From an uncultured bacterium (GTDB lineage Bacteria; Lernaellota; Lernaellaia; JACKCT01): a stretch of DNA of 64,000 nucleotides. The position numbers were made by a program, and so were the translations under genes. How positions within the stretch are numbered: position 1 is the first letter of the stretch; each line of letters starts with the position of its first letter. Location of the stretch: positions 464 to 64,463 of the forward strand of contig CAZPJD010000225.1 of assembly GCA_964586775.1 (NCBI GenBank). Reading direction: 5' to 3'. Below are positions 17 through 57,610 of the stretch, piece by piece. Under the pieces are notes generated by a model. It was not told the DNA's origin. It was given only the letters and a program-made list of their open reading frames with translations, and did not search any database.

Positions 17-1492
17 TCAGGAGCGTGAACAAGATCTGGAGTCAGGTTTCTCCACCCGATACACCGCGAAGCGTCCGTCGCCCGAGCGGAAGACGCGCGT
101 GAACGCGAGGCCCAGTCGCTCGGCGGAGGGCGCGTCGGGCAGACCGAGCACCGGCGCAAAATCCACGGGGTTGTCGGGCTCGTAAGCGAGCCAGCGCGCG
201 CACGGATCGTCGAGCAGCTTTCGCAGGCCGGCCTCGTCGAACGCGCCGCCGGGCCCCGGCGCGGCCAGCACCGCGCGGCCATCGCGCAGATTCGCGTGAA
301 CGAGCAGCCACCCTTGCAGGCTCGTGCCGATCACCACGCGCTCGGGGGCTCGCGGCGTCTCGCGCAAGAACGCGGCCTGCTCCACCGCCCCGCCCGGCAC
401 GGCGAAGCGCGCGTTGTCGGCCAATGTGACGAGCGTCGAGAGCCCGATGAGGATCACCGACATCCCCGACGCGATGAACTTCTCGAACCACCGGCCGTCG
501 AGCCGCCTGGCGAGCTCCGCCGCCGCCTGCGGGATCATCATGACCACGAGCGGCATGACGTACTTGGTCTCGTTCGCGCCCATCGCGCCGCGCAGGGCCT
601 GCGTCTCGAAGACCGCGAAGGTCCACGCCGCGCTCGCCATCAGCGCCCACGCCCGGCGCGCGCGACGCAGCGTGATGAACGCGGCGAGGCCCAGCAACGC
701 CGTGGGCAGCGGCGCGTCATGCGCGAGCACCGCGGGCCACGCGATCGCCCGCTCAAAAAGCGATTTGTCCGCCATGTGGATCGCCGACACGCCCTGCGAG
801 ATGCGCAGGAAGTTCAGCGGATCGCCGGTCCGCGTCCATTGCCACGCGCACCACGTGGCGGGGAACGCCGCGCACGCGGCGACGAAGGCGAGCCCCTTGC
901 TGCGCCCGCGCCATAGCGCGAGCGCGCCGAGAATCGGCAGGGCGGCCCAGATCTCGAAGCGCGTGGCCGCCGCGACGGTGAACGCGAACCCGGCGATGGC
1001 CGCGGGCGCGACGCGCTCGGGATTCGTCCACCACGCGTCCCACGCCAAAAACGCGGCCATGACGATCGCGGCGTAGGGCATCATGTCGAGCCCGACGACC
1101 GAAAGGCGGATGCCGTGAGGGTGCGCCGTGAGCAGCACGAGGGCCAGCACGGCCTCGCGCACGCCGAAGATCCGCCGCGCGAGGAGGGCTACGATCCAAA
1201 ACAGCGCGAATGACGATATGAGCGAGAGCACGCGCGGAGCGAGGATTGGATCGGGAACGGCGGCCATGATCGCGGCGGTGAGGTAGTAGCCGACGGGGCC
1301 GTAGGCGGCGTCGGGCACCACCTCGAAATTCGCGAGCCAACGCTCGACGAAGAGGCCGCGGTCGTAAGCGTTGTGATGAAAGTCGATGCCGTTGTCCGAC
1401 GCGGCGAACACCGCGAGACGCACCGCAACGTAAACGGCGAAGACGACGAACGGCGCGACGCGCCAACCCCGCCAATTCTCGTCCGGCAGCAT
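17..1492 (-). CDS. Polytopic membrane protein, glycosyltransferase family 39/ArnT-like (dolichyl-phosphate-mannose-type sugar transferase fold)
   Basis: 491-aa ORF with many hydrophobic helices over the N-terminal two thirds and a soluble C-terminal domain. The architecture resembles PMT/ArnT-type membrane glycosyltransferases. No diagnostic motif was confirmed. Confidence 0.45.
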   Translation of the reverse strand: MLPDENWRGWRVAPFVVFAVYVAVRLAVFAASDNGIDFHHNAYDRGLFVERWLANFEVVPDAAYGPVGYYLTAAIMAAVPDPILAPRVLSLISSFALFWIVALLARRIFGVREAVLALVLLTAHPHGIRLSVVGLDMMPYAAIVMAAFLAWDAWWTNPERVAPAAIAGFAFTVAAATRFEIWAALPILGALALWRGRSKGLAFVAACAAFPATWCAWQWTRTGDPLNFLRISQGVSAIHMADKSLFERAIAWPAVLAHDAPLPTALLGLAAFITLRRARRAWALMASAAWTFAVFETQALRGAMGANETKYVMPLVVMMIPQAAAELARRLDGRWFEKFIASGMSVILIGLSTLVTLADNARFAVPGGAVEQAAFLRETPRAPERVVIGTSLQGWLLVHANLRDGRAVLAAPGPGGAFDEAGLRKLLDDPCARWLAYEPDNPVDFAPVLGLPDAPSAERLGLAFTRVFRSGDGRFAVYRVEKPDSRSCSRS

Positions 1493-1511
1493 TACGCCAT
1501 CCCGGCCCGGG

Positions 1512-2372
1512 TCATGCGGGCGATCCGGTGAGGTGATCGCGCAGCGCCTCGCGCCACGGGCGCATCGCGTATCCGGTCTCGCGCGTGAACCGCGAGCCGT
1601 CGAGCACCGAGTAGGCTGGGCGTTTCGCCTTGGTGGGATAGCGATCGCTCGAGCAGGCGACGACCTCGACGCCGTCGATGCCCGCGAATTCCACCACCGC
1701 GCACGCGAGGTCGTACCACGTCGCGAGCCCGGCGTTGACGATGTGGTAGATGCCCGACCCGTGGCCGTGCAGGACGCGCACGATCGCCTCGGCGAGATCC
1801 GCCGCGTAAGTGGGGCAGCCCGTTTGATCGTTCACCACCTCGAGCCGCGCCTGCTCGCGCGCCTTGCGCCGGATGGTGTCGACGAAGTTGCGTCCCAATC
1901 GCCCGTAGAGCCACGCCGTGCGGACGATGACCGCGTTTTGTGCGCCCGCGTCCATCACCGCGCGCTCGCCGTCGAGTTTCGATTGCGCGTAGATCGAAAT
2001 GGGATTCGGCAGGACGTCTTCCGTGATCGGCGCACTCGCCGTTCCGTCGAACACGTAGTCGGTGGAGATGTGCACCAAACGCCCGCTCTTTTTCGCGCAC
2101 GCGCGGGCGAGATGAGCCGGGATATCGACGTTGGCGCGCCTGGCGGCGTCGAGATTCGCCGGGTCTTCCGCGCCCTCGACGTCGGTGTATCCGGCGCAAT
2201 TGATGACCACGCCGGGCCGCAGGTCGTCCATCAACCAAGCGACGGTTTTCTCGTCGGCGAGGTCGCCGTCGGCGAGGTCCCATTCGACGGCGTTGTGACG
2301 ATAGTGTCGCAGCGCGAGAACCACCGCCCGCCCCAGCATGCCCCGCGATCCCGTGACCAGAACCCGCGTCAT
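1512..2372 (-). CDS. rmlD: dTDP-4-dehydrorhamnose reductase
   Basis: 286 aa. N-terminal Rossmann motif VLVTGSRGMLG. The length and conserved blocks (YxxxK region, STDYVFDG) are typical of RmlD/RfbD. Confidence 0.85.
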   Translation of the reverse strand: MTRVLVTGSRGMLGRAVVLALRHYRHNAVEWDLADGDLADEKTVAWLMDDLRPGVVINCAGYTDVEGAEDPANLDAARRANVDIPAHLARACAKKSGRLVHISTDYVFDGTASAPITEDVLPNPISIYAQSKLDGERAVMDAGAQNAVIVRTAWLYGRLGRNFVDTIRRKAREQARLEVVNDQTGCPTYAADLAEAIVRVLHGHGSGIYHIVNAGLATWYDLACAVVEFAGIDGVEVVACSSDRYPTKAKRPAYSVLDGSRFTRETGYAMRPWREALRDHLTGSPA

Positions 2373-2660: not shown

Positions 2661-4712
2661 ATGTCCCGCAAAGCGGCGGCGCTGGCCGTCATGTTGACCG
2701 TTCTGGCCGTGTGCGCGGCCGTTTTCCTGGCGTCGCCCCGGGACGACCTCGCGGCGGCGGACGTTTTCGCCAACGGCGCGATCGGCCCGCACGCGATGGA
2801 CCCCGTCCACCCGGTCGTGTTGCCCGCTCCCCAGTGGCCGCCGCGCGTCGTGAGCGCGTTTCCCAACACGTCGTACTTCTACGCCTTCGACAAGATCTAC
2901 CTGTTCGGCTACATCGATGGCACGACCTACACGCTCTACAACGCGGGCGGATCGCCGATCCAGAGCGGCACGCTCAACGACGGCGAGCACGTCGAGTTCG
3001 CCATCCTCACGGGTGTGTATCGCCTCGACGCCTCTGACCTGATCGCCGTGCTCGTGGGCAACGCCGACAACAACATCGTCGGTTACTACGCCGTCAACGA
3101 ACACTCGCTCGCCGTGGGCAACAAGTTCTACAGCTACCAGTACGCCAGCGGCCCCGACATGAAGCAGATCGCGTTCGCCTATCAGAACGGCACGACGATC
3201 CAGGCGTTCAACATGAACACCGGCGCTTCGCTCGGCACCACCACGATCAACGCGGGCGAGCACTGGGTGCTCAACACCGTTGCGAGCCGAAACAAGTACA
3301 TCAAGACGATCGCCGACAAGCCGATCTCGATCCTGAATTTCAGCGACATCGGTTACGCCGTGCCCGCGTCGACGGGCCTGTTCTCGGGCAAGCTCTTCCT
3401 GGGATACGCGGGATCGACGAGCGGCGACGGCGACGTGGTCGTGTCGAGCTTTACCGACGGCAACACCGTGACCGTGACGAACTCCACCACGAACGCCGTC
3501 ATCTTCACCGGCACGCTCGATCGCGGCGAGATGTGGCGGCAGACCTTTGCCGACATGTACTTCAAGGTCGAGTCGTCGGCCAACGTGTCGGTGAGCGTCG
3601 TGCCCTACATCGGCGCGGCGGGCGATTACCACTACATGTCCATCGCGTCGGACGACGTGGGCACGCGCATCGGCATCGATTTCTACTTCACCACCGTGAA
3701 CGGCCAGATCGACGTCTTCGCGTACGAGGACGCGACCAACGTCACCGTCACGGATACGCGCGGCACGGTGGACCCCGGCGACGACCTCGTGGCGTGGTCG
3801 GGCGCGCTCGATCAGGGCGGCCACCAGATGGTGACGTCGTACATGACGCAGTGGCACGTCGCGGCCGACAAAGGCGTGTCGGTGTTCACGAGCTTCGGAA
3901 CGCAGGCGGGTTCGGAGTTCATCCCGCTCTACGGCATCATCCTCGAGTGCGACAACGACGGCGACGGCCACGACGGGCCGCAGTGCGACGGCGACGATTG
4001 CAACGACTGGGACGACACGATCTATCCCGGCGCCGAGGAGATCAACTGCGATCGCATCGATCAGGACTGCGACGGAGAGGACCAGTGCCTGTGCGAAGGT
4101 CCCGAAGACTGCGACGACGGCATCTTCTGCAACGGCGCGGAAGAGTGCGACACGCAGACCGGGCTTTGCGGGCCGGGCGATTTCCCGTGTCCCGACGACG
4201 GCCTGTATTGCACCGGCCGCGAGCAGTGCAACGAAACGACGGACACGTGCGAGCAAAAGCAGGTGCCGAACTGCCCGGACGACGGCGCGTACTGCAACGG
4301 CGACGAGCTGTGTGACGAAGACCTCGACATGTGCGGTCACACCGGCAATCCGTGCCCCGACGACGGAGTGTTCTGCAACGGCTACGAGGAGTGCAACGAG
4401 CTGTCCGACCTGTGCGAGACGAACGTCGTGTGTGAAGACGACGGCGCGTTCTGCAACGGCGCGGAGACGTGCAACGAAGAGGCCCAGACCTGCGACCACG
4501 AGGGCAATCCCTGCCCCTCGGGCGAAATCTGTCTGGAAGACACGGACGAGTGCCTCGCCGGGGACGATGACGACATCGAGCCGCCGGCCGACGATGACGA
4601 AGAAGATCCCGGTCCGACGCCCGCCGGCGAAAAGGAAGAGGATGCGGGCTGGCCCGAGGGTCAGGTGACCGGCGGCTGCTGCGGTTGCGGAGACAACGGC
4701 ACGGACGACTGA
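2661..4712 (+). CDS. Secreted protein with N-terminal signal peptide, central beta-rich domain and six C-terminal Myxococcus-type cysteine-rich repeats (CPDDGxxCNGxExC); acidic tail ending GGCCGCGDNGTDD
   Basis: Start fixed by back-counting 683 codons from the stop at 4710-4712. The N-terminus is hydrophobic (MSRKAAALAVMLTVLAVCAAVFLA). The repeated Cys spacing CxDDGxxCNGxExC occurs 6 times between aa 430 and 630. Confidence 0.7.
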   Translation: MSRKAAALAVMLTVLAVCAAVFLASPRDDLAAADVFANGAIGPHAMDPVHPVVLPAPQWPPRVVSAFPNTSYFYAFDKIYLFGYIDGTTYTLYNAGGSPIQSGTLNDGEHVEFAILTGVYRLDASDLIAVLVGNADNNIVGYYAVNEHSLAVGNKFYSYQYASGPDMKQIAFAYQNGTTIQAFNMNTGASLGTTTINAGEHWVLNTVASRNKYIKTIADKPISILNFSDIGYAVPASTGLFSGKLFLGYAGSTSGDGDVVVSSFTDGNTVTVTNSTTNAVIFTGTLDRGEMWRQTFADMYFKVESSANVSVSVVPYIGAAGDYHYMSIASDDVGTRIGIDFYFTTVNGQIDVFAYEDATNVTVTDTRGTVDPGDDLVAWSGALDQGGHQMVTSYMTQWHVAADKGVSVFTSFGTQAGSEFIPLYGIILECDNDGDGHDGPQCDGDDCNDWDDTIYPGAEEINCDRIDQDCDGEDQCLCEGPEDCDDGIFCNGAEECDTQTGLCGPGDFPCPDDGLYCTGREQCNETTDTCEQKQVPNCPDDGAYCNGDELCDEDLDMCGHTGNPCPDDGVFCNGYEECNELSDLCETNVVCEDDGAFCNGAETCNEEAQTCDHEGNPCPSGEICLEDTDECLAGDDDDIEPPADDDEEDPGPTPAGEKEEDAGWPEGQVTGGCCGCGDNGTDD

Positions 4713-4784: not shown

Positions 4785-5771
4785 CTACAAATCCAGCACC
4801 GTCTTAAAGTGCTCGTAGATCTTGCGGTTCGCGTACGATGGAAATCCGATCGAGGTGTAGTGCGTGAGCGGCATGAAGTGGACCGTGGGCTTGCCGTAGG
4901 TGTCGCGCGTTTTCAGCACGAGCTCGCGCGGGATGATGTCGTCGATCGCGCCGTTCACCATCACGAGCCGCGCGGGGTCGATGCGGTCGGCGTAGCGCGC
5001 GGGGTCAACGGGGCCAAAGGCCGGCTCCACCGCGGCGCGAAGCTGCGCGGGCGTGATGTTCTCGCGCTCCATCACCGCGTCGCGCAGCTTGTACACGCGT
5101 GAAAACCCGCTCTCGGCCACGATGTCGGACAGGTGCGCGCCGGTGACCAGAAACCCCGCCGCCTCGACACGCCCGTCGGATTCCATCGTCAGCGCGCCGA
5201 TGATGCCGCCGAGCGAAATGCCCATCACGGCCGTCTTGTTCTTGTCCACGTATGGCAGCGTGTCGAGGTAATCGATCGCCCGGCGCGCGTCGATCACCGC
5301 CTGCCGAATCTGCATGGCGCTGTATTCGAGCGGCTTGTCAGGCTTAAAAAACGTTTCGCGCCGACGCAGCGCGATGACCGTGAAACCGCGTTCGGCGAAA
5401 TACTCGGCGTAGGGTTTGACGATATCATAGGGACCGCCCGTCGGCGGCAGCAGCACCAGCGCGGGAGTCTGCTTGTTCTCGTCCTTGGGCGAATAGAAAA
5501 ACGCCTTCGCGTTCTTCTCCTTCATCTTCTCCATGTCGCGCGCGCGCCATTTGAGGCCGCGTTCGACGTATTTGCCGTGGTCCTTCGTCTTGCCATCGAT
5601 GACGGGCGCAATCGGGTTCGCGCGGTCGTAGGCGAACTCGGGAATCTCCTCGCGCGCGAGCGCCGGCGGCGACGCGGCCATCGTCCCCTCGAAGCGGTAC
5701 GTGGCGCATCCCGACGCGAGCGCGGCAACGGCGAGCGCGAAGACGAACGAAACTCCCGCAAGACGGCGCAT
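4785..5771 (-). CDS. Lipoprotein, alpha/beta hydrolase (dienelactone-hydrolase/esterase-like)
   Basis: Lipobox LASGC after the signal peptide. Nucleophile elbow GISLGG (GxSxG). 328 aa. Confidence 0.65.
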   Translation of the reverse strand: MRRLAGVSFVFALAVAALASGCATYRFEGTMAASPPALAREEIPEFAYDRANPIAPVIDGKTKDHGKYVERGLKWRARDMEKMKEKNAKAFFYSPKDENKQTPALVLLPPTGGPYDIVKPYAEYFAERGFTVIALRRRETFFKPDKPLEYSAMQIRQAVIDARRAIDYLDTLPYVDKNKTAVMGISLGGIIGALTMESDGRVEAAGFLVTGAHLSDIVAESGFSRVYKLRDAVMERENITPAQLRAAVEPAFGPVDPARYADRIDPARLVMVNGAIDDIIPRELVLKTRDTYGKPTVHFMPLTHYTSIGFPSYANRKIYEHFKTVLDL

Positions 5772-19380: not shown

Positions 19381-19398
19381 TTCGACTCCGAATCCCGT

Positions 19399-19576
19399 CT
19401 GTGCGGAACCCTCGCAGGTCATGTGGCACAGCCGCCCCCGGCGGTGCGGAACCTTTGCGGGTCATGTGGCACAGCCGCCCCCGCGGTGCGGAACCTTTGC
19501 GGGTCATGTGGCACAGCTGCCCCCCGGCTGTGCGGAACTCTTGCGGGTCATTTGGCACAGCCGCCCCCGGCTGTGT
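19399..19576 (+). repeat. Tandem array of four REP elements (about 42-bp units, each with an 8-bp-stem hairpin CACAGCCG-cccc-CGGCTGTG)
   Basis: Four near-identical units of the form ctgtgcggaacc(t/c)ttgcgggtcatgtggcacagccgcccccgg read directly. The array lies immediately 5' of the RAYT gene. Confidence 0.85.
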
Positions 19577-19588
19577 AAAACTCCGTTC

Positions 19589-20089
19589 ATGTCGCAACGT
19601 GAACCCAAAGCCCGATACCGGAGAAACCTTCCGCACATACAGGCTGCCGGAAAGACATTCTTCATCACGTTTCGAACGCGCCGGGATGTCGAATTGCCCG
19701 GGGACGCTCGCTCGCTGGTGCTTCAGCATTGTCTGTACGATCACGGGCGGCGCTACGAACTGATCGCCGCCGTGGTGATGCCGGATCACGTGCATCTCCT
19801 GCTCACGCCGAGACTCGAAGACGCGCTCGCCCCGTTCAGACTCGCCGCCCTCATGTCGGGAATCAAAGGATCGTCGGCACATTCCGTGAACAAAGCCATG
19901 GGACGACGCGGCCCATTGTGGCAGGACGAATCATTCGACCATGTCCTGCGTTCTGACGAAGATGCGCGTCAGGTCGGGGAATACATTTCGCTCAACCCGG
20001 TGCGCAAGGGGCTCGCCGAAACGCCCGAAGGGTATCCATGGCTTTGGCGGCGGTGGGTGGAGGGAGAAAGAGTCCAGCAGGGGCCATGA
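19589..20089 (+). mobile_element. REP-associated tyrosine transposase (RAYT; IS200/IS605 Y1 HuH family)
   Basis: HuH motif PDHVHLLL and catalytic Tyr in EYISLNPVRKG. 166 aa. Flanked by REP repeats in opposite orientations. Confidence 0.85.
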
Positions 20090-20095
20090 GGCAAG

Positions 20096-20201
20096 AGCAC
20101 AGCCGGGGGCGGCTGTGCCACATGTCCCGCTAGGGTCCTTGCCTTTGAATGTGGAACAGGCGCCCTCGCCTGTTCGGCACTCGCACAGCCGGGGGCGACT
20201 G
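20096..20201 (-). repeat. Inverted pair of REP elements 3' of the RAYT gene (reverse-complement of the upstream units)
   Basis: gcacagccgggggcggctgtgccacatg at about 20098 and gcacagccgggggcgactgtgccacatg at about 20172. Both are reverse complements of the upstream REP core. Confidence 0.8.
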
Positions 20202-20220
20202 TGCCACATGATCTTGTTCC

Positions 20221-22560
20221 TCAGATCTCGTACCAGCAGCCGTCGGCGGCGGTCATGAAGGCGTCGTCGTCGCTGTCGAGCTCGCCGGACTGATCGAGGT
20301 CCGCGCCATCGCACCAGCTATTGCCGGCGTCGCACGACGCACCCTCACCGAAGTTCGTCCACGCCGTGTCGAAGTCGGCCTGATCGTCGGCGTCCACATC
20401 GCCGTCGCCGTCGAGGTCGGGCCGCTCGCAACCCAGAACCGCCCACGAGCAGTCGAGCACGGTGGGTTCCATCGCGCAGTTGGGGATCTCGTTCAGATAG
20501 ATCGCCCCGCCGAAGCCCTGGTGCGTGATGTTGGGAATCTCCTCCCAGTCGCCGTCGACGTTGACGACCTCGTAATGATCGCCGTTGCGCTTGATCGGCT
20601 TGTCGGCCTCGGTGGGGAAGCGGTCCCAATAGCGGTCGTAGGTTTCCGGCCGATCGGCGTAGCCGTTCACCTCGGCGAGGATCTGGCTCCACAAATCCGC
20701 GTCGCTCCACAGCGCGCGCGGCGTGCTGTCGCCGCGATTCAGCACGTCCTCGAACACATCCTGATAGCGCTCGGCGCGCACCCAGCCCTGCGGGTCGTAA
20801 TCGGCGTTGCCCACGCCCGCGATGTGCGCGTACTGGGCGACCTTCTGGAGTTCCTCGATCGCCTCGTTCACGTAATTCGATGGCGGCACGGGCTGCGCCT
20901 GCGCCCAGTCGAGCGTGAGCTGCGCGCTGATGCGGTGCAGCTCGGTGATGTGGAAGAGCGCCTCGCGCGCCTCCTGCAGCAGATCGCCCTTGTTGGCGAG
21001 CTGCGCGTAATACACCAGCGCGAAGGCGGCCATCTCGGGCTGGTCGGTCGCGTCGGCGATCTGCATCAGGATGTCGGCCACGCTCGACCCGCCCAGGTTG
21101 ACGGCGATGCGCATGAGGTCTTCGAGCGACTGGCCGAGGATGTTGAGGTTGTAAATGTCGCCCCAGCCGAGGCCGATGTAGGCGTCATCCATGTTTTCGC
21201 AGGTCTTCGTCAGGTTGCCGGGAACCGGGATGCCCAGCGCCTCGAGCAGCATCTTGATCGCGATGATCTCATACGACCCCGGCGTCTCGACGGGCTCCGT
21301 GGGCGAGGTCAGGCCGTCCGCCGACATCGCCTTGGCCATGTACGACATCTGGCAGGAATTCATCGAGCCGAGCCACTCGGGGCCCTCATCCGCGCCGTCG
21401 GGGCGGATTTCGCCGGCGACGATCAGGTGGTCCTCGTCATAGGGCTCGAACTCGCCCACCGTCATCAGGTTGTAGCCCTCGCCGATGGTGCGATCGCCGA
21501 TGCGCTGCCCGGCGGCCCACGCGCGCTCGGCCGAGGCGCGCACGTCGGCGTCGGCGCCGGCGTCGTTCATCGCCTCGAGCGCGGCGAAGTAGCCCACGCC
21601 GAAATCGGGGAAGTTGTCGCGGCTGTTGTGATTGCCCCAGAAGTAGCCCTCGAAGGGCCCGAGCTGGCTGATCATGTACGACGAGCAGCAGTTCGAGATG
21701 CGCAGGTAGTAGGGCATCTCCTCGAAGACGAATGTCACGGCGTAGTCGCCGGGGCGCAGGATCGACTCGATGCGGAAGTAGTGGTCCGTCGGTTCGCCGT
21801 TGATGGCATACACACCATCGGAGAAGAACGCGTTGATGATCTCTTCTTCGAGCGTGGGCGAGTAGTCCTCGGCGGGGTCGATGGGCGCGCCGTCCAGCGT
21901 GCGCGTCACGGTGCCGCCGGGGCCGTCGATGGTGACGGTAAATCCGGTCTGCCACTCGCGGCAGGTGAGACCGTCGATGCCCTGGATTTCCTCGGCGTAG
22001 GCGAGGCCCTCGAACTGGCGGATCGCGGTGAGGGCCAGTTCGCGCGTGCGGAAGATCTTGTAGGCCTGATACGCGTTGAAGGCTGAGAAGCCGATCCAGT
22101 TGTTGTCCACCGGGTGGAGCTGGACTTCGTAGTCGCTGCCGTCCTTGGCGATGTTCGTGTGGCCCAGCGTGTGCGCGGGCACCACGTCGCCGACGAGCAT
22201 GAAGCGGTTGTACGCCTTGAGCGTGCGGCCGATGCGCTCCTTGTAATAGAGCTTGAAGGCGTCGGCCTTCGTGGTCGGATTCACCCACGGATCGAAGGGG
22301 ATGTCGTCGTCGGCGTCGTCGTCCGTCGTATCGTCGTCGGTCGTGTCGTCATCCGAGGTGTCGTCGTCGCCGGTGTCGTCATCCGGCAGCGGGGGGAACG
22401 TGTCGTCGTCGCCCGTGTCGTCGTCCGCGGCGTCGTCATCCGCCGCGTCGTCGTCCGGGGTGATCGTCGTCGGCCCGGAATCGTCGTCGTCATCGCCGCC
22501 GCACCCCGCGACAAACGCCAGAGCCATCACCACCGCCACCGCCCAACCCCACCTGTTCAT
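20221..22560 (-). CDS. Large lipoprotein with poly-Asp N-terminal linker (lipobox VAGCGG then DDDDD...); function unknown
   Basis: Start at MNRWGWAVAVVMALAFVAGC. An acidic tract DDDxxDDD of about 90 aa follows the lipidated Cys. A 650-aa globular domain with no recognised family follows. Confidence 0.6.
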   Translation of the reverse strand: MNRWGWAVAVVMALAFVAGCGGDDDDDSGPTTITPDDDAADDDAADDDTGDDDTFPPLPDDDTGDDDTSDDDTTDDDTTDDDADDDIPFDPWVNPTTKADAFKLYYKERIGRTLKAYNRFMLVGDVVPAHTLGHTNIAKDGSDYEVQLHPVDNNWIGFSAFNAYQAYKIFRTRELALTAIRQFEGLAYAEEIQGIDGLTCREWQTGFTVTIDGPGGTVTRTLDGAPIDPAEDYSPTLEEEIINAFFSDGVYAINGEPTDHYFRIESILRPGDYAVTFVFEEMPYYLRISNCCSSYMISQLGPFEGYFWGNHNSRDNFPDFGVGYFAALEAMNDAGADADVRASAERAWAAGQRIGDRTIGEGYNLMTVGEFEPYDEDHLIVAGEIRPDGADEGPEWLGSMNSCQMSYMAKAMSADGLTSPTEPVETPGSYEIIAIKMLLEALGIPVPGNLTKTCENMDDAYIGLGWGDIYNLNILGQSLEDLMRIAVNLGGSSVADILMQIADATDQPEMAAFALVYYAQLANKGDLLQEAREALFHITELHRISAQLTLDWAQAQPVPPSNYVNEAIEELQKVAQYAHIAGVGNADYDPQGWVRAERYQDVFEDVLNRGDSTPRALWSDADLWSQILAEVNGYADRPETYDRYWDRFPTEADKPIKRNGDHYEVVNVDGDWEEIPNITHQGFGGAIYLNEIPNCAMEPTVLDCSWAVLGCERPDLDGDGDVDADDQADFDTAWTNFGEGASCDAGNSWCDGADLDQSGELDSDDDAFMTAADGCWYEI

Positions 22561-25012: not shown

Positions 25013-27874
25013 TCAACAGCCGCAGCCGTCGTCGTCGTCATCGCCGCCGCCGTCCGCCGCCGACGCGTCGTCGTCCGACGTATCGTCGTCCATCGAATCG
25101 TCGTCGGTGATGTCGTCGTCCGCCGTGTCATCGTCGACCGTGTCGTCGTCGTCGGTGTCGTCGTCCAACGTATCGTCATCCGTCGTGTCGTCATCGACGG
25201 TGTCGTCGTCGACGTCGTCATCCGCGTCGTCGTCGGTATCGTCGTCGCCGGGGATCGTGGTCGTCGTGGTCGATGTCGTGGACGTGGTGGTTGCAGTCGT
25301 GGACGTGGTGGTCGTTGTCGGCGTGCCGGTGCTCGGCCATCCCACGACCTCGATGTTGTCGAGGCCCCAGTACTGCGCGTCGAGCCCCGCGTTCTTGTAA
25401 TAGAAACGCACGAAGACCTGCGGATACAGATCGGCTTCGGGCAGGTCGAAGGTCACCGCGCCCTCCTGATCCGCACCCCAGTTCACCAGATTCGTCCACG
25501 TCACCCCGTCGTAGGACCACGCCACCTGCGCGCGGTCGAGCAGGCCGTGCCGATACTCGTGCCGGAAACGCAGTTCGATGCCCTCGTGGTGCGAGCAGTC
25601 GAGCGCGGGCGTGATGAGCTGTTCGTCGAGACGCTGGAACTCGCCCGTCGTCTCCTTATCCGCGGCGACGAAGCGGTCCATCCAATGCGGCGAGCTGCGC
25701 GATCCCGCGTTGTCGCTGTTCCACGTCACGGTGTTCGATCCGCCGTCCACGATCTGCCAGGGACGCGGCTCGAGATCGAAGTTGTCGAAGAAGATGCGGT
25801 CGGGCCCGGTGGGCGACGCGGTCACCTCCACCGTGTTGCCGTCGCAGTTGCCGAAGGGATCGCACGCGCGCACCACGTAGTACCAATCCGCGCCGTTGGG
25901 CGCCCATTGATCGAGCCAGGGCGACTCGGTCGCGGTGTCGATGGGGTCGTCGAAATCCTGAGCCCCGGACGCGTCCGCGCGGTAGATGCTGTAGACCACC
26001 ACGCCCGTGTCGGCCGCGGGATCCCACGTGATCTCGGCCTCGTTGTCGAGGCCCGTCGCGCCGGTCGCGCCCGCGAATGTCGGCGCGGCGCAGTCGGCGC
26101 TTGCGATTTTCGTCTCGACGACGTTGATGCCGCCCTCGCCGTCGTTGGCGTCGGTGTAGGTGACCGTGATCGTGTCGCCGTTCGCGAGTTGCAGCACGCC
26201 GTCGGCCGCGGGCGCGCCGGTCGCGGTGGCGATCTGGCCGCGGAAGAGGCCGTCCACTTCCGCGTCCTCGGTCAGGGCGAGCGTCTCGCCGCCAGGCTCG
26301 GTCGTGCTCTTCACGTTCACGTTCAGCGTGCCCGACAGATCGCCCTCGGTCACGGTGACGCGCACGACGTCGTCGCACGAGTACAGCGCACGGTCGATGG
26401 AGAGCGTCGCGTTCGACGTGACCATCTCGGCGAGCAGCCACCAGTACGCCTCGACCACGTCGATGCGCCCGCGCCCGTAGACGTTGTCCTCGCCGGCCGC
26501 GCCCAGATCGACGGCGGTCTCGTAGAGCGCCATCTTCACCTGCTCCACCGTCGCCTCGGGAAAAGCGCCGCGCAGCAGGATCGCCGCGCCGGTCACCGCG
26601 GGCGTGGCCATCGAGGTGCCGCTCATGGTGCTGTAGTTGTTGCCCGGCACCGACGACATGACGTTGTCGCCGATCGCCGAAACCTCGGGCTTGAGCGTCA
26701 GATTGTCGCAGCGCGACGGCCCGCGCGACGAAAAACTCGTGATCGTCGTGTTGTCCTGCTTGAGCGCGCCCACCGCAAAGGTGTTGAGCGACGTCGTGAT
26801 GCGATTCCCCGGCGAACGCAGCGATTTCGCCGTGGGTCCCTCGTTGCCCGCCGCGAAGAGCACCACCACGCCCGCGGCCTCGGCCGCGTCGATCGCCGCG
26901 TAAAAGTCGTTCGCGCACGACGGATTCGGGATGCCCCACGAGTTGTTCACCGCGTCGGGCACGTCGTCCACCGTGCCGGGGTTGCCGTCGGGATCCGCCA
27001 TCCACTCGAACGCGCCGATCGCGTCGCTGTAGATGTTGCCGCCGGGTACGTCGATCGTCTTCGCGCCGATCCACTTCGCGCCCGGGGCCATGCCGATCTG
27101 GTGCCCCGCGCCGTCGTCGCCCAGGATCGTGCCGAGGGTGTGCGTGCCGTGCGAGCCGGAGTCCGTCGGGAAGGTCTCGCTGCCGACGGGATCGAACCAC
27201 GCGTGCTCGGGCAGCACGCCGCCGTCGAGCCCGCGCCACCGATCGGCGAACGCGGGGTGCGTGGCATCCGCGCCCGTGTCCTGATCGCAGGCCAGCGCGC
27301 CCGTGCCGTCGTAGCCCATCGCCCACAGCTCCGGCGCGCGCGACGCCGTGATGCTGCCCAATATGCCCGTGGCCACGTCATCGGCGGCGATCGCGTCGCC
27401 CACGGCGACCGGTTCGATCAGCTCCAGCGGCGGATCGAGATAGACATTCGCGATGTCGCGCCGCGCGCGCAGCGTTTCGATGTACGCCGCGTCGGCCTCG
27501 ATCGCGACCGCGTTGGCGATCCAGAATGGACGCACCCGGCGCACCGCCGCCCCCGCGCCCGCGAGCGTGCCCAACAGCGCGCCCTGCGTGGACGCGGCCA
27601 TGTCCTGCAATTCCTCGATGACGAGCGCGTGGCGCTGCGCCCGGGTCAGGCGCGCGTCGTCCATGAACGCGGTGAGCGCGGCCAGATCCACCGATTCGGC
27701 CATCGTGAGGTAGATGTTCAGCGTTTCGCCGGGCGCGGCGGCGGCCAGCACGTCCTCGAGCGCGTCGTCGAAACGCGCGGCGTTCGCGACGGAGGGCGAA
27801 ATCGCGAGAAGAATCAGCAGAGCGACAAAGGAAACATGGCGGGAAAAACGCAACGTGGACATGGCAACTCCCAT
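25013..27874 (-). CDS. Secreted subtilisin-like serine protease (peptidase S8) with C-terminal domains, Thr-rich linker, poly-Asp linker and terminal GCGC
   Basis: Signal peptide. S8 catalytic residues in DxG, HGTHT and GTSMATP contexts. The C-terminus reads TTTTTSTTATTTS...DDDTDDDADDD...DGGGDDDDDGCGC-stop. Confidence 0.8.
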   Translation of the reverse strand: MGVAMSTLRFSRHVSFVALLILLAISPSVANAARFDDALEDVLAAAAPGETLNIYLTMAESVDLAALTAFMDDARLTRAQRHALVIEELQDMAASTQGALLGTLAGAGAAVRRVRPFWIANAVAIEADAAYIETLRARRDIANVYLDPPLELIEPVAVGDAIAADDVATGILGSITASRAPELWAMGYDGTGALACDQDTGADATHPAFADRWRGLDGGVLPEHAWFDPVGSETFPTDSGSHGTHTLGTILGDDGAGHQIGMAPGAKWIGAKTIDVPGGNIYSDAIGAFEWMADPDGNPGTVDDVPDAVNNSWGIPNPSCANDFYAAIDAAEAAGVVVLFAAGNEGPTAKSLRSPGNRITTSLNTFAVGALKQDNTTITSFSSRGPSRCDNLTLKPEVSAIGDNVMSSVPGNNYSTMSGTSMATPAVTGAAILLRGAFPEATVEQVKMALYETAVDLGAAGEDNVYGRGRIDVVEAYWWLLAEMVTSNATLSIDRALYSCDDVVRVTVTEGDLSGTLNVNVKSTTEPGGETLALTEDAEVDGLFRGQIATATGAPAADGVLQLANGDTITVTYTDANDGEGGINVVETKIASADCAAPTFAGATGATGLDNEAEITWDPAADTGVVVYSIYRADASGAQDFDDPIDTATESPWLDQWAPNGADWYYVVRACDPFGNCDGNTVEVTASPTGPDRIFFDNFDLEPRPWQIVDGGSNTVTWNSDNAGSRSSPHWMDRFVAADKETTGEFQRLDEQLITPALDCSHHEGIELRFRHEYRHGLLDRAQVAWSYDGVTWTNLVNWGADQEGAVTFDLPEADLYPQVFVRFYYKNAGLDAQYWGLDNIEVVGWPSTGTPTTTTTSTTATTTSTTSTTTTTIPGDDDTDDDADDDVDDDTVDDDTTDDDTLDDDTDDDDTVDDDTADDDITDDDSMDDDTSDDDASAADGGGDDDDDGCGC

Positions 27875-29978: not shown

Positions 29979-31547
29979 CTAGCACCCGCATCCGTCGTCG
30001 TCGTCATCGTCGTCGTCGTCGCCGTACGCGGGGATGTCGGTGGACGTGTCGTCGTCACCGGAATCGTCATCCGCCGTATCGTCATCCGCGGTGTCGTCGT
30101 CGGAATCGTCGTCCGCCGTATCGTCGTCGCTATCGTCGTCGCTGTCGTCATCGGTGTCGTCATCGTCGGGTTCGATCAGATCGTCGTCGCCGAAGGGTCC
30201 GCCGCCGGGCAGGATGCCGTAGTACACGCCCATCCAGTAGCCGACGAGGTAGTCCATACCCGGGCCCACATAGCGCTGGTCCTCGCCGTGGTTGCAGCCC
30301 GTCTCGAAGGGCGTCGACTGCCAATACATGTCGGTCCAGTGCCGGTCGTCCAGCTCGCGCGCCTCGGCGGTGATCGGGTCGATGTTGATGAGATCGTTCA
30401 GCCACGGGTACTGGTTGCCCAGCTCGTCGAGCAGCACCGACAGCGGATCGAGCGGCATGTCCGAGCACGTGCGCGCGCGGCGGTAGCTCGGCGCGTCCCA
30501 ATATCGGCCCAACGTGTTGAAGTGGTCGTCCTCGATCCAGTCGTAATCGTCTTCCACGCAATTGCCGAGACGCAGGCAGCCGGTCACGTGCGTCGAATCG
30601 AACCAGGGGTTGTGCGTTCGTTCCACATAGGGGCGGTTGTAGGTCATCCACAGATCGTAGAGTTCCTCGAGCCGCTCGCGATCCGGCCACAGGCGAAACA
30701 CCGCCTGAAAATCCAAATGACGCAGGTTGTTGCCGTAGTACTCGGTGTACTTGTTGTATCCGGCCCAGATGTCCACCGCGAGCACGGGCCGCCACAGGTT
30801 GTACTGCTGGTCGAGCAGTTCCCAAATCTCGGGTGTGTCGATCACGTACGCGGCCTGCACGAGCCACGCGATGCGCTTCATCGGGCCGATCCACGCCGCG
30901 CCGTTGCCCGTGTATTCGCCGTTCTGGTCGGTGATGTTCCAGTCGTTCGTCGTGAGCATCTCGATCACGTCGATGATGTCGTCGCGGATGCCCGCGCGCA
31001 CGTCCTCGTGCTCGGCGAGTCCTTCGAGCGCCTGATACGAGAGCACCATGCCCCACCACCAGCCGCTGTATTGGTCGCGGCTCGTGTGATCGACCCAGTA
31101 GAGCCCCGCGAACTCGCCCTCGCCGTGATTTTTCCAGTCGTTGTCATCGCCCTGGCCGCAGTTCCACGGGGCGATGTCCTCGCCCGCGAAGCGAGCGATG
31201 TAGCCCAGCGTCTGCGTGATCGCCATGGCGGTGCGCATGTATTCGACCACGCGCAGCACCTCGTCGAGCGCGCCCTCGTCGCCCGTGGCCATGTAGCGCA
31301 GCGCCTCGGCGCCCAGGTACATGCCCGTCCAGATCATGCTGTCGCCCTGATGGTGCAGGCAGCCGATCTCGGTACGCGTCTCGTCGGTGAACTCGACCGC
31401 GCCGGTGAGCGCACCGAGGCTTCCGTTGTGCCAGGTCTCGATCCACTCCTGATACGCCTCGGCTTTGGCGTGCAGATCGGGATCGAAATCGGCCCACGCG
31501 GGGGAAACCGCGAGACAAATCGTCAGAATCAACAGCGCGCGTCGCAT
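29979..31547 (-). CDS. Secreted hypothetical protein (Trp/Tyr-rich globular domain) with C-terminal poly-Asp linker ending DDDDDDDDDGCGC
   Basis: Signal peptide MRRALLILTICLAVSPAWA. A 440-aa domain with no recognised family. The C-terminal 80 aa are almost exclusively Asp/Thr/Ser, then GCGC-stop. Confidence 0.65.
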   Translation of the reverse strand: MRRALLILTICLAVSPAWADFDPDLHAKAEAYQEWIETWHNGSLGALTGAVEFTDETRTEIGCLHHQGDSMIWTGMYLGAEALRYMATGDEGALDEVLRVVEYMRTAMAITQTLGYIARFAGEDIAPWNCGQGDDNDWKNHGEGEFAGLYWVDHTSRDQYSGWWWGMVLSYQALEGLAEHEDVRAGIRDDIIDVIEMLTTNDWNITDQNGEYTGNGAAWIGPMKRIAWLVQAAYVIDTPEIWELLDQQYNLWRPVLAVDIWAGYNKYTEYYGNNLRHLDFQAVFRLWPDRERLEELYDLWMTYNRPYVERTHNPWFDSTHVTGCLRLGNCVEDDYDWIEDDHFNTLGRYWDAPSYRRARTCSDMPLDPLSVLLDELGNQYPWLNDLINIDPITAEARELDDRHWTDMYWQSTPFETGCNHGEDQRYVGPGMDYLVGYWMGVYYGILPGGGPFGDDDLIEPDDDDTDDDSDDDSDDDTADDDSDDDTADDDTADDDSGDDDTSTDIPAYGDDDDDDDDDGCGC

Positions 31548-36507: not shown

Positions 36508-37902
36508 ATGCGGACCTACTGCCGGAAGGTTTTGTTCCTTCCCCTCTTGGCCGTATTGCTTCTCACCGGCTGCACAGGAGACGACGATTCGCCTTCGTCG
36601 GACTCCGGCGTAACAAGCGATGACGACTCGGCGTCGGACGACGACACGACCGCCGATGACGACGCGGCGGACGACGATCTCGCGGACGATGACGACGACG
36701 GGCCGAGTTATCGCCCGATCCTGTTCGTGCATGGATTCCTCGAAGACGGCGACGCCTTTCACGCGCAGTCGCAGCGCTTCGCCACGAACGACTACGACCT
36801 CGATCGCGTCTTCGCCGTCGATTACAACACGCTCTGGGCGACGCCGGACGCCGTCGATCTGATCGGCGGGGCGATCGACGAGATCCGCGCGCTCACCGGC
36901 GCCGACGACGTCGACCTGATCGGCCACTCGATGGGCGGGTCGATGGGCGCGGATTATCTGCAGGGCGCCCCCGCGCCGAACCACGTCGCCCACTACGCCC
37001 ACGTGGCGTCCTTCGATTTCGAAACGGCGGGCATCGACGCGCCGATCCTCAATCTGTCGTCCGAGGCCGATGCGGTGGTCGGTGCGCGAGAGATCGACGG
37101 CGCGACCAACGTGGTGCTGCCCGGCCTCGACCACCTGCAACTCGCGACGTCGCCCGAGACCTTCGAGCAGCTCTTCACCTTCTTCAACGGCGAGCCGCCC
37201 GCGACGCTCGAGGTCGAGCCCGCCTCGCCCATCACGCTCTCGGGACGCACACTCGTCTTCGGCACGAACGAGCCCGCGCCCGCGCAGATCGTGCGCATCT
37301 TCGCGGTCGATCCCGCGACGGGGGAGCGCGACGCCGCCGAGCCCGACGCGGTTTTCACGTCCGACGCGACCGGCGCGTGGGGCCCATTCGATGCTGAGCC
37401 GGACACGCACTACGAGTTCGAGATCCGCGACGAGGCCGGGCGCTGGCCGGCGGTGCGTTATTACCGCGAGCCGTTTATGCGTTCGAGCCGCCTCGTGCAC
37501 TTTCGCGTGTTGCCCGATTTCGATTCGGCGTTCGCGGTGCCGTTCAAGCTGCTACCGCTGCTGGGTGATCGCGTCGCCTTTGCCTCGCTCAACCTCAACC
37601 GCGCGGCGATCGCCGGGCGCGACACCTTCACCGTGGACGGAATCGACCTGGCGACCGAAGACGTTACGCCCGCCGACCAGAGCGTTCTCGCGGCGGTGTT
37701 CGCCGATCTCAACTTCAACGGCGCCACCGACGGACCGATCCTGCCCGGCATCGTCGGCCTCTTTCCGTTCTTCACGATCTACGATCTTTTCGCCGATCCC
37801 GGCGTCGGCGATCCCATCCCGATCGAATTCAACGGACGCACTCTGACGATCCGAGGGGACGAGGGCCCCGCCGAGTCGCTCTCCATCGCTCAATTCGACT
37901 GA
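36508..37902 (+). CDS. Lipoprotein alpha/beta-hydrolase (lipase/esterase class) with poly-Asp N-terminal linker
   Basis: Lipobox LLTGC, then TGDDDSPSSDSGVTSDDDSASDDDTTADDDAADDDLADDDDDG. Lipase motif GHSMGG and an HG oxyanion region. Confidence 0.7.
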   Translation: MRTYCRKVLFLPLLAVLLLTGCTGDDDSPSSDSGVTSDDDSASDDDTTADDDAADDDLADDDDDGPSYRPILFVHGFLEDGDAFHAQSQRFATNDYDLDRVFAVDYNTLWATPDAVDLIGGAIDEIRALTGADDVDLIGHSMGGSMGADYLQGAPAPNHVAHYAHVASFDFETAGIDAPILNLSSEADAVVGAREIDGATNVVLPGLDHLQLATSPETFEQLFTFFNGEPPATLEVEPASPITLSGRTLVFGTNEPAPAQIVRIFAVDPATGERDAAEPDAVFTSDATGAWGPFDAEPDTHYEFEIRDEAGRWPAVRYYREPFMRSSRLVHFRVLPDFDSAFAVPFKLLPLLGDRVAFASLNLNRAAIAGRDTFTVDGIDLATEDVTPADQSVLAAVFADLNFNGATDGPILPGIVGLFPFFTIYDLFADPGVGDPIPIEFNGRTLTIRGDEGPAESLSIAQFD

Positions 37903-48788: not shown

Positions 48789-50033
48789 TCAGGCGCAGCC
48801 GCCTCCGCCGTCCGACCCGCCGCCGTCGTCGTCGCCGCCCCCGTTTCCGCCGCCGACGCCTCCGAGACCCGTGTCGCTGTCGTCGTCATCATCGTCGTCG
48901 TCACCGGGGAACCAGCCGTCGTCGTCATCGTCGTCGGACGGCTGCGTGGTGGTGGTGGTCGAGGTCGGGATCGAGGTTGTCGTCGGGCTCGTCGTCGTGG
49001 TCGTGCCCGGGTTCGTCGTGGTCGTCGTCGCGTGCGTGGTTGTCGTCGTGTGCGTCGTGGTGGTCACGTGCGTCGTGGTGGTGGTCGTCGTCGTGGTGAC
49101 GACAACCGTGTACTTCTCCATCACATCCGACGGAAAACCCAGAGGGCCGATCGGATCGCCGCCTGCCACCCACAGTGCGTTCTGCGACACCGCCCAGCCC
49201 ACGCGGTAGCGGTTTTGCACGACGTTCGTCGTCTGCGTCCACGATCCCCCGGGGGTCGCGGTGTAACCCTTGTTCACCCAACCGCCGCTGCCGTTTTCGC
49301 CGTGCGAAAAGATCAGCTTGCCGTTCGCCGTTCCCGACGCGCCGCCCCACCAGATCGTCGGCAGGTTCGGGCACGTGTCCCACGAGTCCGTCCCCGGCGT
49401 GTACACGTCGCAGGTGTTGAGCTCCGTGTCCGTCTCATCGACGCCGCCGAACACATAGAGCTTGCCGCCCGCGACGCCGCTTCCGTGGAACCGCCGCGAG
49501 GTGGGCATGGGCGTGAGCGCTAGCCATTCGTCGTTGTCGGGATCGTAGGACCAGCACTCGGGGTGCGACAAATCATTCTGATCGCCACCGCCGCACAGGT
49601 AGAGCAATGTGCCGATCTTGTCGAAGGTGTAGGCGTAGCGCGGCCCCGGCACCGTCGCCGTCATCGTCTCGAAAAGATTCCACGTGGTCTGGTATCGATA
49701 CACCGTGCCGACCACGTTCGTGCCATCGAAACCGCCCGGGATGTAGATCCAGCCGCCCAGCTCCGTGCCGTGGCCGAGCGCCAGGGCCGCCGGAAGGTTC
49801 GCCGCGTTCGACCATGTCAGTGTCGAGATCTTGTATTTATCCGACGAACGCAGGTAGCTGCCCAGCCAGTCCATTCCGCCGAACACATAGATGTTCTGGG
49901 CATCCGCAGCCATGATCGGATCAAAGCGCTGGGTGTCCATGCCCGACATCTGCGTCCATTGGGCAGCCGCGGGCGATGCCGCGACGATTGCGAACGCGAA
50001 CGCAACAAACCACAGAAAAGCGCGAGAGCGCAT
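48789..50033 (-). CDS. Secreted Kelch-repeat beta-propeller protein with Thr-rich and poly-Asp/Gly C-terminal tail ending GGGGCA
   Basis: Signal peptide MRSRAFLWFVAFAFAIVAASPAAA. Repeated Kelch-like GG/W motifs (WIYIPGG, LYVFGG, LYLCGG). The C-terminus reads TTTTTTTTT...DDDDDDGWFPGDDDDDDDD...GGGSDGGGGCA-stop. Confidence 0.65.
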   Translation of the reverse strand: MRSRAFLWFVAFAFAIVAASPAAAQWTQMSGMDTQRFDPIMAADAQNIYVFGGMDWLGSYLRSSDKYKISTLTWSNAANLPAALALGHGTELGGWIYIPGGFDGTNVVGTVYRYQTTWNLFETMTATVPGPRYAYTFDKIGTLLYLCGGGDQNDLSHPECWSYDPDNDEWLALTPMPTSRRFHGSGVAGGKLYVFGGVDETDTELNTCDVYTPGTDSWDTCPNLPTIWWGGASGTANGKLIFSHGENGSGGWVNKGYTATPGGSWTQTTNVVQNRYRVGWAVSQNALWVAGGDPIGPLGFPSDVMEKYTVVVTTTTTTTTTHVTTTTHTTTTTHATTTTTNPGTTTTTSPTTTSIPTSTTTTTQPSDDDDDDGWFPGDDDDDDDDSDTGLGGVGGGNGGGDDDGGGSDGGGGCA

Positions 50034-57606: not shown

Positions 57607-57610
57607 GGAT

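Follow-up and report, generated by a model that had tools for sequence, protein, structure and literature searches.

We analysed a stretch of 64,000 nucleotides from an uncultured bacterium of the Lernaellota lineage (GenBank assembly GCA_964586775.1, contig CAZPJD010000225.1; hereafter the window), in which three lipoprotein genes, 20221..22560(-), 36508..37902(+) and 55384..57606(-), encode an aspartate-rich tract (D-tract) between the predicted lipidated cysteine and the folded domain. This tract is probably a lineage-specific polyanionic, disordered spacer adjoining an anchor, with 13-66 residues and a net charge of -8 to -35 in the window and up to ~113 residues in relatives. The linker is predicted to be disordered and has the properties of a spacer on which selection acts through length and charge and not through sequence, and the module of which it is built recurs at the C-termini of other secreted proteins.

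Results

The longest linker belongs to the lipoprotein 20221..22560(-), whose translation opens with MNRWGWAVAVVMALAFVAGC, continues directly with GGDDDDD and then runs through about 12 more DDD blocks up to DDDADDD, where the domain sets in with IPFDPW. Residues 1-19 form the signal peptide (MNRWGWAVAVVMALAFVAG, 22504..22560, predicted helix at residues 4-19), followed by the lipobox VAGC, in which Cys20 (22501..22503) is the predicted lipidation site and an invariant column of a 58-sequence alignment. The linker proper comprises residues 21-86 (22303..22500), i.e. 66 residues with 53% Asp and a net charge of -35, with DDD blocks spaced by one or two small residues; the first-pass annotation had assigned the feature to 22380..22560, an interval which overlaps this linker and covers only a part of it. 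The remainder of the gene, 20221..22302, encodes a folded domain that starts with the family sequence IPFDPWxNPxAKADAFRLYYKER. AlphaFold2 modelling on the basis of the family alignment gave a confident structure, with a mean predicted local distance difference test score (pLDDT) of 90.5 and a predicted template modelling score of 0.88; residues 21-76, as an exception, fall below a pLDDT of 50 and show no secondary structure, and the first helix of the domain appears at residue 97. A Foldseek comparison of the model with the PDB gave no fold match at E<=0.001. The C-terminus of the domain contains conserved Cys residues and two DxDxDG-like loops and is dockerin- or EF-hand-like by eye, and neither the protein nor this C-terminus was assigned to a family by Pfam or NCBIfam.

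A second linker is found in the lipase-family lipoprotein 36508..37902(+) (Pfam Lipase_C, Lipase_2 and Abhydrolase_1), where LLLTGC is followed by TGDDDSPSS and the tract extends up to DDDDDG. Signal peptide and lipobox (LTGC, with the codon of Cys22 at 36571..36573) occupy 36508..36573(+) and the linker of 43 residues, with 49% Asp and a net charge of -21, occupies 36574..36702(+). A weak Pfam match to DUF7537 at 36508..36700(+) (E = 0.006, below the curated cutoff) is restricted to residues 10-57, that is to signal peptide and linker, and probably reflects low-complexity similarity, not homology. The third case is the LamG/GH20b-domain lipoprotein 55384..57606(-), assigned by its domain matches, in which LIASAC is followed by SGGDDDDDDDDGG. 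Here, signal peptide and lipobox (ASAC, with the codon of Cys29 at 57520..57522) lie at 57520..57606(-), and a short linker SGG-D8-GG of 13 residues with a net charge of -8 lies at 57481..57519(-). All six GH20b homologues found (6/6) show the start C-x-G-(G)-D3-8.

The first-pass annotation had counted four poly-Asp lipoproteins, of which these three could be confirmed by translation. The supposed weak fourth, the VolA/Pla-1-like lipoprotein 57611..60400(-) (TIGR03502, 4e-13, below the curated cutoff), carries TRGESDDE behind its lipobox AGGC and no D-linker, although its domain is acidic and Lys/Arg-poor (isoelectric point (pI) 4.5, Lys+Arg 7.3%). A 912-residue counterpart exists in a matching gene pair of the related locus L125 (7024..9762), where SC is followed by ERGQYDDETTTRDFENPGGDG, and since it has the same DFENPGGDG stretch, the start of 57611..60400 is ordinary conserved family sequence and not a linker. 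The alpha/beta-hydrolase lipoprotein 4785..5771(-), in which the lipobox ASGC is followed by ATYRFEG, served as a control without D-tract, its mature domain being basic (pI 8.8, Lys+Arg 14%). The lipobox forms are VAGC, LTGC, ASAC, AGGC and ASGC, and translation of 20221, 36508, 55384 and 57611 shows an N-terminal signal peptide whose n-region is basic and whose h-region is hydrophobic. The VolA/Pla-1-like and LamG/GH20b genes adjoin each other in the window (55384..60400(-)) and, with the order kept, in L125 (7024..12226), a distant relative in which the GH20b protein is 45% identical to that of the window; FadB and thiolase genes lie near the pair in L125 and ~36 kb away from it in the window. 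The two lipoproteins may form a conserved operon.

D-tracts, defined as at least nine Asp per 20 residues, are restricted to exported proteins. Seven of the ten signal-peptide proteins of the window carry one, compared with none of the 29 cytoplasmic or membrane proteins (Fisher p = 7.8e-6), in which the maximum is <=6 Asp per 20 residues against 9-15 in the tract-bearing proteins. An equal occurrence of poly-Asp in cytoplasmic proteins, the outcome that the first-pass annotation had named as speaking against a dedicated function, was hence not observed. Throughout, the repeat unit is DDD with one or two of the small residues T, A, S, G or V behind it, and at the DNA level the 20221 linker is an imperfect 15-nt tandem repeat with 72-82% matches. 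GAT makes up 22% of Asp codons inside and 27% outside the tracts (p = 0.18), and a simple origin by GAC slippage was rejected on this basis; repeats of such degeneracy combined with background GAT/GAC usage do not stem from recent slippage. A halophile-style acidic proteome was rejected as well, with cytoplasmic proteins of the window covering a pI of 5-10 and 10-19% Lys+Arg. Restriction to one compartment, background codon usage and a non-acidic cytoplasmic proteome together mark the D-tract as a real compartment-specific feature.

Comparison of homologues shows what is retained of the tract. Lipase orthologues whose domains are 87-88% identical have linkers of 39-43 residues, with 43 in the window and 39-41 in its orthologues, which are 53-63% identical overall; outside the columns with Asp in both sequences, only 7-9 of 25-28 alignment columns are identical. 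Length and composition are therefore kept and sequence is not, which, together with the predicted disorder, bears out the tether-like behaviour suggested in the first-pass annotation. For the 20221 protein, a homology search with the mature domain yielded more than 120 relatives, which without exception stem from uncultured genomes. Nearly every one of them has a lipobox, and the spacing from Cys to domain ranges from 2 to 113 residues. Among 86 scorable members, 26 linkers are D-rich, 19 have <=6 residues and the remainder are ordinary mixed disordered sequence; the share of Asn in the linkers of the family rises in lower-GC relatives. Some orthologues at ~60% identity leave only 2-4 residues between Cys and domain. 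Judged from these alignments, the D-linker appears dispensable for the catalytic fold.

It might be argued that the tracts are functionless, namely neutral low-complexity GAC/GAT repeat expansions tolerated in disordered sequence, and the 15-nt periodicity, the large length differences between homologues and the shift to Asn in lower-GC relatives are in line with this view. However, the repeat copies have degenerated and their codon usage is unbiased, tracts always adjoin an anchor, none occurs in the 29 non-secreted proteins of the window or in 47 non-secreted proteins of related loci, close orthologues hold 39-43 residues despite sequence divergence, and the feature spans loci of metagenome-assembled genomes (MAGs) with 48-68% GC. 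Neutral expansion is already disfavoured by these observations and we regard it as highly improbable.

The restriction to exported proteins is accompanied by a shift in overall composition. Mature domains of all D-linker lipoproteins examined have a pI of 4.0-4.6 and 2-8% Lys+Arg, some of them with lipase-, LamG/GH20b- or FGE-sulfatase-type family matches. The linker-less lipoproteins 4785 (window), L125 6181 and L128 12441 are Lys/Arg-rich (11-16%), neutral to basic, with two of them basic, and periplasm-like in appearance; the linker-less TPR lipoprotein L123 3635 is Lys/Arg-rich (13%) yet acidic (pI 5.6). The association of the linker with acidic, Lys/Arg-poor cargo and its lack on Lys/Arg-rich lipoproteins hints that it accompanies an exoprotein class. 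As a separate observation in the window and the related loci L121-L128, D-tract proteins are acidic and Lys+Arg-depleted across their folded domains (2-8% versus 10-19% in cytoplasmic proteins), and periplasmic NrfA as well as several tract-less lipoproteins are basic or Lys/Arg-rich.

We further scanned encoding DNA, with one genome per species, for the start C-G-G-D5 and obtained at least 120 loci; 127 matches were listed, and proportions refer to this sample. By heuristic classing, 116 of the 127 lie in frame straight behind a hydrophobic signal sequence and lipobox. About two-thirds of the matches listed come from Chloroflexota and Actinomycetota by hand count of record titles, other sources being Achromobacter, Massilia, Sphingomonas, Polyangiaceae, Kofleriaceae and Bacteroidota. 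To our knowledge, Chloroflexota and Actinomycetota possess neither a Lol pathway nor outer-membrane sorting. Short Gly-Gly-poly-Asp starts are thus widespread among lipoproteins, also in phyla lacking the Lol pathway. The long (DDDxx)n continuation occurs, among the matches listed, only in the MAGs HK-STAS-FEN-2 (8 matches) and FR-FEN-1099-1 and in three further MAGs, and is in this sample confined to FEN-1099/Lernaellota-related MAGs. HK-STAS-FEN-2 also encodes the D-linker homologue P0037 on one of its contigs.

These data bear directly on the reading that the first-pass annotation had given to the tract, i.e. an expanded E. coli-type '+2 Asp' signal for Lol avoidance, which would keep the enzymes on the inner membrane. 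Asp-rich sequence does lie near the lipidated Cys, and acidic residues near +2/+3 are known to lower Lol release in enterobacteria (PMC3222651, PMC12802150). However, Asp had been placed at lipobox +2/+3, and in fact begins at +4 (20221, 36508) or +5 (55384), with position +2 taken by G (20221), T (36508) and S (55384), as it is by T in 57611. The rules additionally vary by phylum, with +2 Lys in Myxococcus and +3/+4 in Pseudomonas, and one would expect lipase- and LamG/GH20b-type cargo to have its substrates outside the cell. Since C-G-G-D5 is, among the matches listed, common in bacteria without Lol, single-membrane phyla included, it does not represent an expanded E. coli Lol-avoidance signal, and we consider inner-membrane retention very unlikely.

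In a census of seven related loci, which were fetched independently and comprise 100 called genes, D-tracts were found in 16 of 24 lipoproteins, or in 9 of 17 after leaving out the seven genes used to fetch the loci. With the 3/5 lipoproteins of the window, the lineage sample thus amounts to 12/22 lipoproteins with linker. Among other signal-peptide proteins, two of 28 carry a tract; one of them ends in GGCGC, and the C-terminus of the second (L128 20710..21510) is a hydrophobic stretch followed by RRRER. The single case among 48 proteins without signal peptide ends in SGCGCG, and its start is probably miscalled. The nearest lipase homologues (87-88% identity) are labelled 'Deltaproteobacteria bacterium' and one lipase homologue is annotated as Ca. 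Alcyoniella australis, a member of Lernaellota. The lineage label 'Myxococcota' used in the first-pass annotation was set aside, because the D-linker homologues that can be placed lie on FEN-1099- or Lernaellota-named MAGs; judged from these homologues, the window most likely belongs to a relative of FEN-1099/Lernaellota. Lernaellota have been described as protein and polysaccharide degraders and were drawn with an outer membrane (PMC9324843); the text of the paper naming Ca. Lernaellota contains neither the word 'lipoprotein' nor the word 'acidic'.

The very high negative charge density could also point to a cation- or mineral-binding module, which would bind Ca2+, Mg2+ or metals and stick to mineral, polymer or an anionic capsule via cation bridges. 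Eukaryotic poly-Asp proteins bind calcium minerals, and poly-gamma-glutamate genes (CapB/CapC-type Pfam matches) near the L124 homologue, also reported for one Lernaellota MAG, count in favour of such a role. On the other hand, the tract is missing from close orthologues of the same enzyme, and binding of cations would be compatible with a spacer and not opposed to it. We regard such a role as unlikely. In L124, the poly-gamma-glutamate synthesis genes (CapB-like Mur_ligase_M and CapC, 469..2123) are located ~8 kb from the D-linker lipoprotein, and an anionic capsule in this relative could bind anionic tethers via divalent cations.

The D-module is not limited to lipoproteins. Four window proteins with a type I signal peptide carry it, according to their translations, at the C-terminus: the subtilase 25013..27874 ends in a (DDDxx)n tail closing with DDDDDGCGC directly before the stop codon (25016..25249(-)), the protein 29979..31547 in a (DDDxx)n tail closing with D9GCGC-stop (29982..30188(-)), the Kelch-repeat protein 48789..50033 in poly-Thr and D6/D8 runs closing with GGGGCA-stop (48792..48935(-)), and the Cys-rich secreted protein 2661..4712 in an acidic tail that contains GDDDDIEPPADDDEEDP and closes with GGCCGCGDNGTDD before the stop (4563..4709(+)). 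Tails in relatives end in D7NGGCCG-stop and D7GGCGC-stop, and further tail-bearing proteins are L070 2004..3920, L125 15986..17323 and L128 8639..9973. Altogether, the terminal Gly/Cys motifs following (DDDxx)n in the window and its relatives comprise GCGC, GGCCG, GGCGC, SGCGCG and GGGGCA. Poly-Thr runs, probably O-glycosylation sites, directly precede the D-tails at 25250..25320(-) and 48936..49100(-) and in L070 2004..3920; where they are present, the layout is domain, poly-Thr, poly-Asp and Cys motif.

DDD plus one or two small residues is the unit common to N-terminal linkers and C-terminal tails, and the mirror-image arrangement noted in the first-pass annotation is upheld by a single enzyme family that has the module at either end and never at both. 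Homology of the 29979 protein to a lipoprotein of the related locus L068 spans the entire domain (33% identity, E = 1e-65); this lipoprotein possesses a lipobox and an N-terminal D-linker and no C-terminal tail. In an exhaustive search against 1.84 billion cluster representatives, 150 listed homologues were scored: 14 have an acidic tail with a Cys end (GCGC, GCCG, ACCG, SCCG, GCGG and others), none of these (0/14) with a lipobox, and four have a lipobox with an N-terminal D-linker, none of these (0/4) with a C-tail. From these sequences, the two modules appear mutually exclusive in this enzyme family among the homologues listed. Since the same module is found at both ends, it would act as a spacer beside an anchor, be this at the N- or at the C-terminus.

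When metagenomes were scanned for D4-GCGC, at least 122 matches were obtained, of which those listed are a sample. In D-tract context, the stop codon follows immediately in 36 of 47 matches listed and within three codons in 6 more, in comparison to 5 of 75 outside such context; the excess in D-tract context corresponds to a binomial p of ~1e-38 against 3/64. The tails matched no family and no curated sorting-domain model in Pfam and NCBIfam, and they terminate at GCGC, GCCG or GGGGCA with no transmembrane helix and nothing after the motif. We tentatively propose that the ...D(n)-G-C-G-C-COOH tail, with the variants GCCG, ACCG, SCCG and GCGG, is a Cys-based C-terminal anchor, not described before, in a two-ended display system, an idea which we still rate as unlikely. 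Such an anchor could be the functional equivalent of the lipobox, with an end that is lipidated or covalently attached in an enzymatic step. Its compatibility with the data follows from the one-or-other anchor on homologues, the stop after the motif in 36/47 of the matches listed and the lack of a match to a curated model. In L128, two paralogues among the small secreted proteins (19845..20585 and 20710..21510), one of them with a D-tract, both end in a hydrophobic stretch plus RRRER, resembling a PEP-CTERM-like or other sortase-type signal; a third type of anchor may thus be used together with the D-module in this lineage.

As to its surroundings, the window (64-70% G+C) is an ordinary chromosomal stretch in which genes for secreted enzymes are scattered among housekeeping genes (ArgRS, NadA, FadB, thiolase, two M24 peptidases, NrfA, a chemoreceptor and sugar-nucleotide enzymes). 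A 43-nt tandem repeat at 19394..19575 (4.2 copies, 89% matches) lies immediately upstream of the annotated start of 19421..20089(+) and extends over it, an IS200-like Y1 transposase gene (Pfam Y1_Tnp), and the two together look like a REP-element/RAYT-type pair.

Discussion

We propose a model in which signal peptide and lipobox would direct Sec export and Cys lipidation, after which the G/S/T-G-(D)n start and the subsequent (DDDxx)n would hold the enzyme domain extended away from the membrane. The D-tract could accordingly be seen as the standard extracytoplasmic spacer of this lineage and as its own version of the disordered linker required at the N-terminus for lipoprotein trafficking, for which length and disorder would count and sequence would not. 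On proteins with type I signal peptides, the D-module would be placed ahead of a C-terminal Cys motif (GCGC and variants). A strongly anionic tract may additionally be repelled from anionic envelope surfaces, and it would withstand proteases with a requirement for basic or hydrophobic residues as well as, perhaps, those that the organism itself secretes; this might be relevant to a subtilase secretor. The first few mature residues may have a second role as a surface-sorting or Lol-bypass cue, a use of the tract that is compatible with its function as a spacer.

The closest precedent are disordered N-terminal linkers needed for lipoprotein trafficking, for which length matters and sequence does not (bioRxiv 10.1101/2021.01.05.425367). 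In RcsF, Pal and NlpD of E. coli, too, an unstructured segment of >22 residues separates the globular domain from the Cys and its sorting residues. Measured against this length of disorder (El Rayes et al.), the 66- and 43-residue linkers lie above the limit, and the 13-residue linker of 55384 is 'intermediate'. Length (39-43 residues) and composition, and not sequence, are conserved among the lipase orthologues, yet some ~60% identical orthologues of the 20221 protein manage with 2-4 residues. In contrast to the mixed composition of the E. coli linkers, those described here contain ~50-65% Asp in a DDDxx rhythm, reach ~113 residues, are present in roughly half of the sampled lineage lipoproteins, and share their module with C-termini.

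The N-terminal residues also invite comparison with sorting signals. In Bacteroides, the lipoprotein export signal (LES) is C-S-(D/E)2, with Asp at +3/+4 being essential, and B. fragilis features C-SDDDD (PMC6222051, PMC5080379). For surface lipoproteins that depend on a type II secretion system (T2SS) and GspN, GGG, ND(N/D) or mixed Gly/Asp were found at P2'-P4', and GGG and GDD act as Lol-avoidance signals in Pseudomonas (PMC12802150). Similar to the LES, the tracts described here place acidic residues straight after a small polar residue behind the Cys of hydrolytic enzymes. However, the LES (C-S-(D/E)2, C-SDDDD, C-X-K-(D/E)2) spans 3-5 residues and has been validated only in Bacteroidota, whereas the Asp-rich sequence of the window sets in at +4/+5 and is tens of residues long; many relatives read C-G-D-D-D-D, with Asp at +3. 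The homologues moreover derive from FEN-1099/Lernaellota-type and 'Deltaproteobacteria' MAGs and not from Bacteroidota. The different phylum and the offset position of Asp set the D-linker apart from the LES family. With regard to the T2SS/GspN motif, GGD, TGD and SGG fit the Gly/Asp-rich P2'-P4' and one neighbour is VolA/Pla-1-like, but the motif was defined in Acinetobacter, Burkholderia and Shewanella and does not include a long repeat. The C-G-G-D5 lipoproteins of Chloroflexota and Actinomycetota are identical in the first eight mature residues and differ, among the matches listed, in continuing with mixed Ala/Thr/Pro/Gly/Glu/Gln linkers instead of (DDDxx)n.

It is therefore conceivable that the tract is mainly a signal for surface export or Lol bypass, where Gly/Asp after the Cys would route the protein onto the external face of the outer membrane, into vesicles or out through a T2SS and the long repeat would be secondary. 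In addition to the precedents in Bacteroides (C-S-(D/E)2), the Gly/Asp motifs of the T2SS and GGG/GDD in Pseudomonas, this is in line with the starts C-GGD, C-TGD and C-SGGD of the window, with C-GDDDD being common in relatives, and with the division between acidic lipase-, LamG/GH20b- and FGE-sulfatase-type cargo bearing the linker and periplasm-like Lys/Arg-rich lipoproteins lacking it. Sorting, however, takes 2-4 residues, leaving tracts of 40-110 residues unexplained, and C-terminal copies of the module cannot be a lipoprotein sorting signal. C-G-G-D5 is, among the matches listed, as common in lipoproteins of Chloroflexota and Actinomycetota, without outer-membrane sorting, and the lineage lies outside Bacteroidota. 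Genes for Lol, T2SS or GspN were not seen, the genome not having been searched for them; T2SS genes are absent from the 64-kb window, with the wider genomes of the lineage not searched. Overall, we consider a primarily sorting-related function possible, if rather unlikely.

For the C-terminal tails, a short C-terminal signature after a low-complexity spacer on secreted enzymes is likewise found in PEP-CTERM, MYXO-CTERM and GlyGly-CTERM proteins. PEP-CTERM-type domains, however, have a transmembrane helix behind the motif, together with a cluster of basic residues, whereas the D-tails stop at GCGC/GCCG. The subtilase 25013..27874 also matches a 'choice-of-anchor J' domain, which typically accompanies C-terminal sorting signals. 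In the literature on poly-aspartate or Asp-rich lipoprotein linkers, we found no description of the feature, and its extreme composition, DDDxx rhythm, lineage-wide use and reuse before a C-terminal Cys motif appear to be unreported.

Several points weigh against a function as spacer. Signal-peptide and lipobox calls are heuristic, made from pattern and conservation only, all statements on localisation are drawn from sequence, and the lineage DNA sampled amounts to ~220 kb. A long spacer is not required for the 20221 enzyme as such, many relatives of which use 2-4 residues, and acidic exoenzyme-like lipoproteins of the lineage without linker exist (L124 12484, L125 7024). A pure spacer also leaves the choice of Asp and the near-constant start of the run 3-4 residues after the Cys unexplained. 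Since the placement of the Asp run matches known sorting signals, sorting could be the primary role. Taking both sides into account, we nevertheless hold a polyanionic disordered spacer beside an anchor to be the probable function, in which the tract may also serve as a surface-sorting cue.

Conclusions

From its sequence, the N-terminal tract would work like a lipoprotein disordered linker, with opening residues resembling known acidic sorting motifs. Disordered linkers and acidic sorting motifs have been established almost entirely from Proteobacteria and Bacteroidota, and we herein describe a candidate phylum with one extreme polyanionic form. As a note of caution, the E. coli '+2 Asp' rule should not simply be transferred to distant phyla. 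The GCGC tail points to a possible new mechanism of C-terminal anchoring. With tracts of 0, 13, 40 or 110 residues on the same enzymes, the lineage offers a natural test of spacer versus signal, and the D-module provides a simple sequence marker of likely envelope-anchored proteins in an uncultured group of polymer degraders.

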